The translations under genes and the position numbers were made by a program. A DNA stretch of 64,000 bases, from NCBI RefSeq assembly GCF_003018115.1, contig NZ_CP027457.1. One strand, 5' to 3'. Under the pieces are notes generated by a model, which saw only the letters and a program-made list of their open reading frames with translations, made no database searches and was not told the origin of the DNA. This DNA is from Escherichia coli (GTDB lineage Bacteria; Pseudomonadota; Gammaproteobacteria; Enterobacterales; Enterobacteriaceae). Shown piece after piece: positions 1,060 to 4,634 of this stretch; position 1 is the first letter of the stretch; every line of letters begins with the position of its first letter.

Positions 1060-1086
1060 GCGCCATCGTTAGATGGCGCTTTTTAT
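1060..1086 (+). terminator. Rho-independent terminator downstream of ydcL
   Basis: Stem gcgccatc / gatggcgc with a 4-nt loop followed by TTTTTAT. Confidence 0.55.
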
Positions 1087-1347
1087 CCGGTGCGCCGTAA
1101 AACCCCATCCTTCAGGGCGGGGATATAAGGCGCGGTTTTCCACCTGACCAGGTGTTTGCTGTTGTTCAATGTATTGGCGGATGACGGATATTGGCGCACC
1201 TCCGCAGCTACTGGCAAAATAGCCAGGACTCCACAAAACGCCTTTGTAGTAATACCTGACTGCAATATCTGGTCGATCTCGTCGCAGTAACCTACCCGAT
1301 ACGCCTTTGAGGCTGTTTACCAGACTGGATATCGCCAGTTTGGGAGG

Positions 1348-1575
1348 TTAGTTAATTAACAAATGGACGTGATCTGGTTCGCCATCCATTTCAACCAGTT
1401 CAGCTTCAAAATAAGCACATACATTTGAAAAGTAAGTGTGTAGTTTTTCTGTCGCGTCATGGTCAAAAATCTGGCGTCGGTATCTGGTGACAAAGACCAG
1501 GTGAACATGCATCAGGAAAACACAATGCCTTCCACGCCGGATATCGGTTTCTTTTTTCACAGACCAAAGTATCAT
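1348..1575 (-). pseudogene. insP: IS200/IS605-family TnpA (HUH transposase), C-terminally truncated
   Basis: 75 aa with HVHLVFVTRYRRQIF and EPDHVHLLI motifs typical of the TnpA N-terminal half; ends before the catalytic Tyr region. Confidence 0.6.
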
Positions 1576-1582
1576 TTGACCT

Positions 1583-2791
1583 GTGAAACGATTACAGGCA
1601 TTTAAATTCCAGTTAAGACCAGGTGGTCAACAGAAGTGTGAAATGAGGCGCTTCGCAGGCGCATGTCGTTTCGTTTTCAATCGTGCTCTGGCACGTCAGA
1701 ATGAGAATCATGAGGCCGGTAATAAATACATCCCTTACGGGAAAATGGCTTCCTGGCTGGTTGAGTGGAAAAATGCCACTGAAACGCAATGGCTTAAAGA
1801 TTCTCCCTCACAGCCATTGCAACAGTCACTGAAAGACCTTGAGCGGGCTTACAAAAACTTCTTCCGGAAGCGGGCTGCTTTTCCCCGATTCAAAAAGCGG
1901 GGACAGAATGATGCATTCCGCTACCCGCAGGGCGTTAAGCTCGATCAGGAAAACAGCCGTATTTTTCTGCCGAAACTGGGCTGGATGCGCTACCGGAATA
2001 GCCGTCAGGTCACGGGTGTTGTGAAAAATGTCACTGTCAGCCAGTCCTGCGGTAAGTGGTACATCAGTATTCAGACAGAAAGTGAAGTATCAACTCCGGT
2101 TCACCCTTCAGCATCAATGATCGGGCTGGATGCTGGCGTGGCTAAACTCGCCACGCTGTCAGATGGCACAGTCTTTGAGCCTGTAAACAGTTTTCAGAAA
2201 AACCAGAAGACGCTGGCGAGACTTCAGCGACAGTTAAGCCGCAAGGTCAAATTCAGCAACAACTGGCAGAAGCAGAAACGCAAAATACAGCGACTGCATT
2301 CCTGTATCGCAAATATCCGCAGGGACTACCTTCACAAAGTCACAACGGCCGTCAGCAAAAACCACGCAATGATAGTCATTGAGGATTTGAAGGTCAGCAA
2401 CATGTCAAAGTCAGCAGCGGGTACGGTCAGCCAGCCGGGGCGCAATGTCCGGGCAAAATCAGGTTTAAACCGTTCGATACTGGATCAGGGCTGGTATGAA
2501 ATGCGCCGCCAGCTTGAGTACAAGCAGCTCTGGCGTGGCGGTCAGGTGCTTGCTGTTCCGCCAGCGTATACAAGCCAGCGTTGCGCGTACTGTGGTCATA
2601 CAGCGAAAGAGAACCGCCTGTCACAAAGTAAATTCAGATGCCATGTATGTGGATATACAGCGAACGCCGATGTAAATGGCGCTCGTAACATTTTAGCGGC
2701 GGGGCACGCCGTTCTTGCCTGTGGAGAGATGGTGCAGTCAGGCCGCCCGTTGAAGCAGGAACCCACCGAAATGATTCAGGCGACAGCCTGA
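1583..2791 (+). CDS. insQ: IS609 TnpB (OrfB, RuvC-like RNA-guided nuclease family)
   Basis: 402-aa ORF from a GTG start; N-terminal AFKFQLRP motif and C-terminal Cys-rich zinc finger (CAYCGH...CHVCGY). K-12 annotation would start at the internal Met at 1643 (382 aa). Confidence 0.8.
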
Positions 2792-2830
2792 ACGTAGCAG
2801 GGATCCACGTCCTTCAGGGCGTGGAGGATG

Positions 2831-4006
2831 TCAATATCGGTTTCTGTCAGCGATTAAATTCAACACCACGTAACAAACGCCTCCGGCAATTAATCCCCAG
2901 AACGCTGAACCAATCCCGACCAGCGTTAATCCACTTGCCGTTACCAGAAATGCCACCACCGCCGCGTCGCGCTCACGCTCATTATGCAGCGCCTGATACA
3001 AACTGCCGCCAATGGTACTTAACAGCGCCAGACCTGCCAGCATCTGGATCCAACTTACGGGCAGGGCAGCCATCATCCCGGTAATGGCACTACCAAACAG
3101 ACCTGCGAGCAAATAGAAAATGCCTGCAACGGCAGCGGCCAGCCAACGTTGATCTTTATCCGGATGCGCTTCCGGGCTTTGGCAAATAGCTGCGGTGATT
3201 GCCGCAATACCGACGGAATAAACGCCGAAAGGGGAAAAAACCAGTGCCAGCAATCCAGTAAATACAATTAATGGCGAAACAGGAGCCGAATATCCGGCTG
3301 CTTTCATTGCTGCGATACCCGGTGCGTTTTGCGATGCCATCGTCACCAGAAAAAGGGGGAGTGCAACGCTCAGGCTGTGAGCAAACGAAAAATCAGGGGT
3401 AATATAAGTGGGGAGAACGGGTTTAAAGACAACATCAGTTGTGACAACGTCACCTTGCGCGATAACGATCACGATCCCAATAATCATCGCGGCAATTACC
3501 GCATAGCGCGGCGCAACGGCCTTGGTTGCCAGCCATACCAGCAACATACTTCCACACAACGTAAATTGACAGTCCAGACTGGCAAACGCCTGTAAACCAA
3601 AGCGTAATAAAATCCCGGCAAGCATTGCCGCCGCAAGCGAGTGCGGAATAATGCGCATCAGACGAGCAAAGAGTCCCGTTATGCCGCAGAGGACTATTAA
3701 CGCGTTGGTGACAATAAAAACGCCGATGGCTTCGTTAAGTGTTAGTCCCTGCAATCCGGTGACCAACAAAGCCGCGCCAGGCGTTGACCATGCGGTGAGA
3801 ACAGGTACGCGATACCATAATGTCAGAGTCAGCGTACTGACGCCCATTGCCAGCCCCAGCGCCGTCATCCAGCCAGAGATTTGTGCAGTGGAGGCTCCGG
3901 CGACAATCGCTGCTTGCCAGATTATTGCCGCTGAACTGGCGTAGCCAATTAATACCGCCAGAAACCCCGCCAGTAGCGTGGGTGGAGGAACAGAAAACAG
4001 ACGCAT
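2831..4006 (-). CDS. ydcO: BenE-family inner membrane transporter YdcO
   Basis: Highly hydrophobic multi-pass protein; start set to ATG at 4006 (MRLFSVPPPT..., 391 aa) with GAGGTG Shine-Dalgarno; the track ORF extends upstream to 4129. Confidence 0.8.
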   Translation of the reverse strand: MRLFSVPPPTLLAGFLAVLIGYASSAAIIWQAAIVAGASTAQISGWMTALGLAMGVSTLTLTLWYRVPVLTAWSTPGAALLVTGLQGLTLNEAIGVFIVTNALIVLCGITGLFARLMRIIPHSLAAAMLAGILLRFGLQAFASLDCQFTLCGSMLLVWLATKAVAPRYAVIAAMIIGIVIVIAQGDVVTTDVVFKPVLPTYITPDFSFAHSLSVALPLFLVTMASQNAPGIAAMKAAGYSAPVSPLIVFTGLLALVFSPFGVYSVGIAAITAAICQSPEAHPDKDQRWLAAAVAGIFYLLAGLFGSAITGMMAALPVSWIQMLAGLALLSTIGGSLYQALHNERERDAAVVAFLVTASGLTLVGIGSAFWGLIAGGVCYVVLNLIADRNRY

Positions 4007-4097
4007 AGTCACCTCGTGCGTTATAGCGTACAGGCACCGTAGCATTTGTCCGTTATAACGCACAAGTGATAAACTTCCGTTTTGCCGGAGGAGTCGC

Positions 4098-4634
4098 ATG
4101 GAAAATCTCGCTCGCTTTTTATCCACCACACTTAAACAACTACGTCAGCAGCGCGGCTGGAGTCTTTCGCGACTGGCAGAAGCGACGGGCGTTTCTAAAG
4201 CAATGTTAGGACAGATTGAGCGTAATGAGTCCAGCCCGACGGTCGCGACATTATGGAAAATTGCCACTGGGTTGAACGTGCCCTTTTCGACATTTATTTC
4301 TCCGCCACAGTCCGCTACGCCTTCAGTTTATGATCCACAACAGCAGGCGATGGTGATCACTTCGCTGTTTCCTTATGATCCACAACTCTGCTTTGAACAC
4401 TTCTCGATTCAGATGGCACCCGGTGCAATAAGCGAATCGACGCCCCATGAGAAGGGGGTAATCGAACATGTCGTCGTCATTGATGGACAACTTGATCTGT
4501 GCGTTGATGGTGAATGGCAGAGCCTTAATTGTGGGGAAGGCGCTCGATTTGCTGCAGACGTCACGCATATCTATCGTAATGGTGGGGAGCAAATCGTACA
4601 TTTTCATTCCCTCATCCATTACCCGCGCAGTTAA
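4098..4634 (+). CDS. ydcN: HTH (XRE-type)/cupin-domain transcriptional regulator YdcN
   Basis: 178-aa ORF; N-terminal HTH (LSRLAEATGVSKAMLGQIERNESSP); divergent from ydcO. Confidence 0.8.
   Translation: MENLARFLSTTLKQLRQQRGWSLSRLAEATGVSKAMLGQIERNESSPTVATLWKIATGLNVPFSTFISPPQSATPSVYDPQQQAMVITSLFPYDPQLCFEHFSIQMAPGAISESTPHEKGVIEHVVVIDGQLDLCVDGEWQSLNCGEGARFAADVTHIYRNGGEQIVHFHSLIHYPRS

Follow-up and report, generated by a model that had tools for sequence, protein, structure and literature searches.

A complete IS609 element between ydcL and ydcO

The window (the whole 64-kb stretch of E. coli DNA that was analysed) contains a complete 1748-bp IS609 element at positions 1087-2834, in the interval between the convergent genes ydcL and ydcO, which is also its site in E. 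coli K-12 MG1655. The element carries a disrupted tnpA gene for a Y1 HUH transposase, an intact tnpB gene (insQ) and, across the 3′ end of insQ and the right end, a predicted guide-RNA scaffold (Table 1). A sequence-only reading had earlier recognised an IS609-like element adjoining ydcO, and this identification was borne out: with the K-12 annotation as the reference, positions 1087-2834 differ from the feature 'insertion sequence:IS609' at 16 of 1748 positions (99.1% identity), and the ends match that 1748-bp feature in extent. Bases 1000-2900 of the window are 100% identical to E. coli strain F9792, and at least part of this segment was matched in 5423 of 5426 complete E. coli genomes.

Table 1. 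Positions, strands and supporting evidence for the features of the locus
Feature	Position	Strand	Basis
ydcL intrinsic terminator hairpin, GCGCCATC-GTTA-GATGGCGC	1060..1079	+	Terminator scan; same sequence in the Nissle 1917 empty site
TTTAT target pentanucleotide, predicted TAM for TnpB	1082..1086	+	Insertion-site comparison; relatives
IS609 left end	1087..1143	+	Boundary from empty site and off-locus copies
Left subterminal hairpin, TTCA loop	1103-1110/1115-1122	+	Hit by the terminal-hairpin segment of RNA model R1
tnpA (Y1 HUH transposase) pseudogene, full length	1144..1575	-	Pfam; alignment with intact TnpA; tblastn
insQ/tnpB, 402 aa, intact	1583..2791	+	Pfam; NCBIfam; structure alignment
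Predicted omega-RNA (reRNA) scaffold, 3′ tail GGAUGUCAA	2689..2834	+	Model R1; covariation; Rfam; MFE
Helix H1	2696-2701/2707-2712	+	Hand-drawn structure; covariation
Helix H2	2718-2721/2756-2759	+	Hand-drawn structure; covariation
Helix H3	2726-2728 plus 2730-2733, paired with 2742-2748	+	Hand-drawn structure; covariation
Helix H4, encloses tnpB stop TGA (2789-2791)	2775-2781/2786-2792	+	Hand-drawn structure; covariation
Helix H5 (9-bp stem, TTCA loop)	2804-2812/2817-2825	+	Hand-drawn structure; covariation
Right subterminal hairpin, TTCA loop; presumed TnpA recognition hairpin in DNA and last omega-RNA stem	2804..2825	+	Helix covariation
TCAA at the very end of the element (right cleavage site)	2831..2834	+	Right-end alignment
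Predicted 16-nt guide TATCGGTTTCTGTCAG, antisense to the last ydcO codons	2835..2850	+	TnpB/omega-RNA architecture

The ends were established from an empty site in E. coli Nissle 1917, which reads ...GATGGCGCTTTTTAT/TATCGGTTTCTGT... (the slash marking the insertion point), together with copies at two other loci, one within a TetR-family gene (L003) and one within a DUF3251 gene near tsx (L004). Similarity of these two copies to the window is confined to the segment from CCGGTGCGCC... through ...GGAGGATGTCAA. The element is therefore full length with both ends, and neither the extent of 1340-2830 given in the sequence-only reading nor its description as a remnant was upheld. Comparison of the empty site (...TTTAT/TATCGG) with the filled site (...TTTAT/IS/TATCGG) revealed no target-site duplication. 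In each of three independent E. coli insertions (the window, L003 and L004) the left end comes directly after the pentanucleotide TTTAT, which is present once in the empty site. Among relatives the pentanucleotide 5′ of the element is TTTAT, TTTAC or TTGAT. At ydcL/ydcO the T-tract of the ydcL terminator overlaps this target.

The element has a Y1 HUH gene, lacks terminal inverted repeats, made no duplication at its target and bears subterminal hairpins on the same strand at both ends, each with a TTCA loop; it is the already known, and already annotated, IS609 of the IS200/IS605 family. In the window copy the left-end hairpin contains a mismatch (A1107.C1118), where other copies have G at position 1107.

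The element had also been described as lying flush against the ydcO stop codon. It does adjoin ydcO, but this description understates the relationship, because the stop codon itself belongs to the element: the TGA of ydcO, read on the minus strand, is formed by element bases 2831-2833 (TCA on the plus strand). The end of ydcO reads CGA TAA in the empty site and CGA TAT TGA after insertion, with the gain of one Tyr codon. Given that the empty site originally read CGA TAA, the insertion split the ydcO TAA and the right end supplied a TGA in its place, and the lengths of the coding sequence (1173 nt in Nissle versus 1176 nt in filled strains) fit this account.

The transposase gene is a point-mutated pseudogene

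The tnpA gene had been interpreted as truncated, with the N-terminal half alone remaining. Both halves of the Y1_Tnp domain are however present, with Pfam positions 1-58 matched in 1351-1575 and positions 60-121 in 1072-1347, and between them lies a single in-frame TAA (1348-1350) that replaces Tyr76. The open reading frame at 1348-1575 comprises 75 codons, and reading through the TAA gives the remainder of TnpA in the same frame. Residues 1-143 are 96.5% identical by tblastn to the intact 143-aa IS609 TnpA of L003, WP_000604943.1, which scores 146 bits on the NCBIfam model transpos_IS200. The normal stop codon has additionally changed from TAG to CAG (1144-1146), so that the frame continues through the left end to position 1069 in the flank. 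RefSeq labels tnpA of strain F9792 'internal stop'. The window tnpA is thus a pseudogene created by point mutation and not by truncation.

The HUH motif (H69-V-H71) lies upstream of the TAA and the C-terminal part of TnpA downstream of it; in TnpA of IS608, which serves here as an analogy for IS609 TnpA, the C-terminal part carries the catalytic tyrosine helix. The earlier view that tnpA is non-functional holds, since the Tyr76 nonsense codon kills the gene; the window copy lacks the active TnpA of an autonomous transposon, and the element cannot excise unaided. The presence of both ends and both subterminal hairpins nevertheless makes mobilisation by TnpA acting in trans possible. The L004 copy, at another locus, has the same Tyr76 stop and has lost the normal stop codon in the same way as the window copy, which suggests either that an element moved in trans after the death of its tnpA or that gene conversion occurred. 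By whichever of the two routes they came to be shared, these lesions count against the element being 'probably immobile', a judgement that was too strong.

InsQ retains its catalytic and zinc-finger residues

In agreement with the sequence-only reading, the tnpB frame is intact and encodes a zinc finger. InsQ matches the Pfam families OrfB_IS605 (E=2e-34), the Cas12f1-like TNB zinc ribbon (E=1e-23) and, at its N-terminus, HTH_OrfB_IS605, and it scores 380 bits against the NCBIfam model guided_TnpB (cut-off 100). Residues 3-376 align to the ISDra2 TnpB structures 8H1J, 8BF8 and 8EXA (E=8e-55). Aligned with ISDra2 TnpB, all of the RuvC catalytic residues (D183, E267 and D363), which had been proposed as a check, are present, as are the four zinc-finger cysteines (Cys334, 337, 353 and 356; CxxC...CxxC).

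RefSeq already names InsQ an RNA-guided endonuclease, and in K-12 the annotation of b1432 is 'putative RNA-guided DNA endonuclease InsQ'. A literature search found no functional study of IS609, insQ, ydcM or b1432, including expression or cleavage, and the only use of ydcM encountered was as a Ter-region marker in qPCR; an 'IS609' TnpB was purified in PMC12781874, in whose text no result for it was found. A simple promoter scan returned no convincing sigma-70 promoter for tnpB and none for a separate omega-RNA.

A predicted guide-RNA scaffold runs from the tnpB 3′ end into the right end

A search for protein homologues was swamped by near-identical E. coli InsQ variants and yielded no diversity, and contigs were scanned instead, using one genome per species. 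This gave 80 related loci from gamma- and beta-proteobacteria with TnpB proteins 58-94% identical. Their right ends finish in GGAGGATGTCAA, complete ends having the consensus G(G/C)GAGGA(T/C/A)G(T/C)CAA: all 69 complete right ends terminate in ...GTCAA (...GCCAA in two), and beyond this point the sequences diverge. The 12 nt that follow the right hairpin are almost invariant across both proteobacterial classes.

Five helices were drawn by eye on a MAFFT alignment of 27 sequences, and a set of 82 sequences was aligned by the covariance model. In the 27 sequences and in the 82, the latter alignment being fitted to the model and so biased towards structure, with the MAFFT-based count in agreement, 93.7% and 95.4% of cells were paired (37-49% and 41-52% when the partners were slid), compensatory changes were found at 18 of 33 and 25 of 33 pairs (3-8 and 10-15 with slid partners), and the covariation score was 0.344 and 0.438 (at most 0.112 and 0.110 with slid partners). 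None of 500 shuffles equalled the observed covariation in either set. For the helix of the right-end hairpin, seven of nine pairs were compensatory and 96.6% were paired. The first three helices fall within the coding sequence of tnpB and the fourth surrounds its stop codon, so that four helices, separate from the TnpA hairpin, are located within or just past the open reading frame; they are maintained although the encoded residues vary.

The window copy matches the resulting covariance model (R1) with 164 bits (E=2.5e-45) over positions 2689-2834, and the 64 kb contain one other match, which falls on the left-end hairpin (1103-1122). The minimum free energy of the scaffold has a z-score of -3.15, and helix 3 of the window copy includes one mismatch (A2727.C2747). 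With 70 right ends aligned simply by MAFFT, RNAalifold recovered helix 1 only, because indels in the stop-codon and terminal hairpins caused misalignment.

Weak matches to three Rfam families were found at 2664-2844: HgcC (E=0.06; 22.2 bits, gathering threshold 50), sot0042 (E=0.41; 17 bits, threshold 88) and RAGATH-18 (E=0.19; 25.4 bits, threshold 44.9). Each of these RNA families is associated with tnpB 3′ ends, and the matches were treated as a lead only; scores of 17-25 bits against gathering thresholds of 45-88 place the IS609 scaffold outside all three. PMC4615843 describes sotRNA, HgcC and RAGATH-18 (RF02656, RF00062 and RF03064) as RNAs lying over tnpB 3′ ends with a terminal hairpin closed by a UUCA tetraloop, and reports transcripts that overlap such ends, among them some seen in E. 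coli K12 RNA-seq. RNAs derived from RAGATH-18 guide the TnpBs of IS607 (PMC11061315).

Taken together, these results make the conserved guide-RNA scaffold a well supported prediction. The sequence-only reading had anticipated such an RNA from the position of the right end and from a short hairpin (ccacg...cgtgg); the covariation in the 80 related loci and the sub-threshold Rfam matches agree with that proposal, and the hairpin is indeed present (2805-2809/2820-2824) as part of the longer H5 stem.

Elsewhere in the window, a weak mir-2001 match at 4008-4070 was rejected as an RNA; it corresponds to an inverted repeat in the ydcO-sutR intergenic region.

Proposed guide, target and mechanism

ISDra2 encodes its guide RNA where the 3′ end of tnpB meets the right end of the element, and uses the target motif of its left flank as the TAM. 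From the anatomy of the insertion site and this known TnpB architecture, we infer that TTTAT is the TAM of InsQ and that positions 2835-2850 specify its guide. The predicted guide occurs once in the window, and a search of the 64 kb for a further copy next to TTTAT found none. The empty allele of Nissle carries TTTAT followed by TATCGGTTTCTGTTAG, which has one mismatch to the guide, at position 14. TTTAT is the experimentally shown TAM of ISGst2 TnpB2, and RNA-guided cutting of the donor joint with this TAM was demonstrated for the same protein (bioRxiv 10.1101/2023.03.14.532601). Some TnpBs, for example HpyTnpB of IS608, were inactive in interference assays (bioRxiv 10.1101/2023.03.14.532601).

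The function of InsQ and its RNA can be read from these sequence features as follows. The tnpB transcript would be processed into an omega-RNA of about 150 nt, in which the scaffold (about 2689-2834) is followed by the 16 nt of flank at 2835-2850 as the guide. The TnpB-omega-RNA complex would then recognise TTTAT plus TATCGGTTTCTGTCAG, that is, the seamless donor joint left by excision or the empty ydcL/ydcO allele, and a cut at either would allow recombination with a filled copy to restore or spread the element. Excision or movement of the window copy would require TnpA supplied in trans by another IS609 copy; without TnpA no donor joint arises, and InsQ would consequently have no obvious substrate in a cell having this copy alone. 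Overall we consider it probable that the window copy is a structurally complete, non-autonomous IS609 that could be moved in trans by TnpA and whose TnpB-omega-RNA would cut the empty joint.

Repeated loss of tnpA and retention of insQ

The junction between the right end and ydcO that marks a filled site was detected in 3264 of the 5426 complete E. coli genomes (about 60%), and the empty junction in 2048 (38%). Complete E. coli genomes have a median of three places matching IS609, and the same element occurs at other loci and on plasmids in this species.

Fourteen copies at the ydcL/ydcO locus were compared, a small sample analysed with no phylogeny and consisting of the window, K-12 and 12 others chosen across the identity range. 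All 14 have a disrupted tnpA gene, and five different lesions account for this (a stop at Tyr76, Leu96 or Glu62, a 5-bp deletion and a 1-bp deletion), whereas insQ encodes 402 aa with all catalytic residues in every copy. If loss of function is assumed to be equally likely per base, the probability that all five events would strike tnpA (432 bp) and spare insQ (1209 bp) is p=0.0013. Variable sites make up 6.7% of tnpA, 7.0% of the left end, 3.9% of tnpB and 2.1% of the omega scaffold, and in a pooled contrast tnpB plus scaffold are less variable than tnpA plus left end (Fisher p=0.007). The ratio pN/pS is 0.42 for insQ and 0.51 for the dead tnpA; values this close indicate at most weak purifying selection on the protein. 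Because pN/pS fails to separate the two genes, the argument for retention draws on the loss-of-function counts and the site variability.

These patterns allow the proposal, which we hold tentatively and regard as doubtful, that selection kept InsQ and its scaffold throughout the history of the insertion at ydcL/ydcO while tnpA was lost at least five times. If this were true, InsQ would be a 'stranded' TnpB that persists by something other than its own transposase. It might then act as a drive allele, cutting the empty ydcL/ydcO allele during the exchange of DNA between strains, or alternatively represent an early stage of domestication.

Alternative explanations

The element could instead be an inert, decaying relic with no activity in this strain, in which insQ and the scaffold are intact owing to the short time elapsed or to gene conversion. 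Gene conversion is possible given the several IS609 copies in many genomes, and the death of tnpA in every locus copy sampled, the similar pN/pS of insQ and the pseudogene and the mismatched pairs of helix 3 and the left-end hairpin would all be expected of such a relic. It accounts less readily for five independent inactivations that all fall in the smaller gene, for the lower variability of tnpB and scaffold sites or for a catalytic triad retained in 14 of 14 copies, and we judge it unlikely. Still less probable is that the right-end hairpin serves solely as a DNA signal for TnpA, or as a terminator of tnpB, with no guide RNA being made; we regard this as extremely improbable. TnpA proteins of the IS608/ISDra2 kind recognise such hairpins in single-stranded DNA, and the near-identical left and right hairpins of IS609, on one strand and with the same loop, are what this explanation would predict. 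The presence of a matching hairpin at the left end indeed makes a double role for the H5 stem probable, as DNA for TnpA and as part of the RNA. A role in DNA alone would not, however, explain why helices 1-4, upstream of the hairpin and in or overlapping the tnpB frame, covary strongly despite amino-acid change, which favours an RNA over a hairpin read by TnpA, or why the 12 nt beyond the hairpin are so nearly invariant; moreover, no T-run follows the hairpin as in a terminator.

A further explanation is that InsQ and its RNA have been domesticated, being retained for a host function exerted on ydcO or against incoming DNA with the empty allele. Exapted TnpB homologues are known in the form of the TldR regulators (PMC10705468), and like them InsQ is a TnpB homologue that stays at one chromosomal position and has no working transposase beside it, in this case a position fixed in about 60% of E. 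coli genomes, where insQ survives the repeated loss of tnpA. TldRs, however, have lost their RuvC residues and adjoin the genes that they regulate, whereas InsQ keeps the nuclease triad in all 14 copies and sits inside a complete IS with both ends. The guide is merely the natural flank, as it would be for any IS copy, the empty site is intact in the 38% of genomes that are without the element, pN/pS is high, and in other parts of E. coli genomes, including plasmids, the element remains mobile. Domestication therefore appears very unlikely, and we favour the reading of the window copy as a non-autonomous IS609 with a predicted TnpB-omega-RNA that would cut the empty joint.

Comparison with known systems

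InsQ resembles ISDra2 TnpB of Deinococcus radiodurans (8H1J, 8BF8 and 8EXA) in its domain order, its D/E/D triad and its zinc finger. The two systems differ in their TAM, which is TTGAT in ISDra2 and predicted to be TTTAT at the window IS609, with TTGAT found in some distant relatives, and in the arrangement of their genes, tnpA and tnpB being divergent in IS609. ISGst2 TnpB2 of Geobacillus stearothermophilus has as its TAM the TTTAT predicted here and is the source of the donor-joint cleavage and homing model adopted (Meers et al., bioRxiv 10.1101/2023.03.14.532601); it belongs to another host and another IS, one that, unlike the window IS609, has a working TnpA.

As annotation the locus is routine, since the K-12 annotation already includes IS609, insQ and the tnpA pseudogene yncK at this site. 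The present analysis adds the exact ends and the TTTAT target, the stop codon that the element supplies to ydcO, a secondary structure supported by covariation for an IS609-type omega-RNA, and a small population sample in which tnpA was lost repeatedly and tnpB never. Should this pattern hold over thousands of genomes, E. coli would be a natural case for why tnpB genes far outnumber tnpA genes, and K-12 would be convenient for testing TnpB function at its native locus.

The K-12 element (NC_000913 1503161-1504908; yncK b4578 pseudogene and insQ b1432) is the closest counterpart, having the same locus, the same length of 1748 bp, the same ends, a dead tnpA and an intact insQ. The lesion in tnpA is a Leu96 stop in K-12 versus the Tyr76 stop of the window, and the two InsQ proteins differ at five residues (K18E, I180V, T210K, E312A and H354Q). 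Next to the element, ydcL of the window carries a 5-bp duplication relative to K-12.

Substitutions within E. coli copies of IS609

In the IS609 copy between ydcL and ydcO, the usual stop codon of the tnpA pseudogene is replaced by CAG at 1144-1146. The same substitution is common to the copy near tsx (L004) and to every copy at the ydcL/ydcO site, and the copy at a TetR-family gene (L003) has TAG there. The tnpA frame therefore continues across the left end and its hairpin into the flank, as far as 1069.

Extension of the tnpA reading frame in the window
Feature	Position	Strand
tnpA frame extension beyond lost stop	1069-1143	minus

The window copy and most E. coli copies carry two A.C mismatches, one in helix 3 of the predicted omega-RNA (2727/2747) and one in the left-end hairpin (1107/1118). 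The helix 3 pair is restored by G at 2727 in L004 and a further E. coli copy, L093, and the left-end pair by G at 1107 in L003, L004 and two others (L086 and L088).

Variant relatives of IS609

An IS609-like element of Citrobacter amalonaticus (L007, 1917-3252), with its left end just 84 nt 5′ of tnpB, is a natural tnpA-less derivative, in which the full omega-RNA scaffold persists (167 bits). At a locus from a Hahellaceae MAG (L029), the omega-RNA model matches a second time, more weakly, ~1.1 kb downstream of the element (4351-4471, 27 bits, E=2e-5); this match may represent an orphan right end or an orphan scaffold.

Many beta-proteobacterial and Photorhabdus relatives contain a 20-45-nt insertion that enlarges the terminal hairpin by adding stems (loci L031, L037, L042, L043, L046, L051, L054, L059, L063, L068-L070, L072-L074, L077, L078 and L083-L085). 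The enlarged hairpins retain their closing pairs, and the GGAGGATGTCAA tail is likewise conserved. In an Alcaligenaceae MAG (L071, 3250-4488), the right end of the relative is interrupted by a group II intron, inserted a few bases short of the terminus (junction GGAGGATG|TGTGCG...). An Rfam group-II-D1D4-3 match (3329-3497, 101 bits) is followed there by a reverse-transcriptase-like ORF (3624-4397).

Neighbouring genes

The ydcL gene, encoding a 222-aa lipoprotein, is broken into ORFs 378-893 and 839-1051 by a 5-bp tandem duplication (AAATG AAATG, 832-841) absent from strain F9792 and the other strains. Either ydcL is a pseudogene peculiar to this strain, or the sequence is in error at this point. 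Between ydcO and sutR, the inverted repeat GTGCGTTATAGCG...CGTTATAACGCAC (4008-4070) produced a spurious mir-2001 match, which was rejected; the repeat is plausibly an operator for the adjoining regulator SutR.
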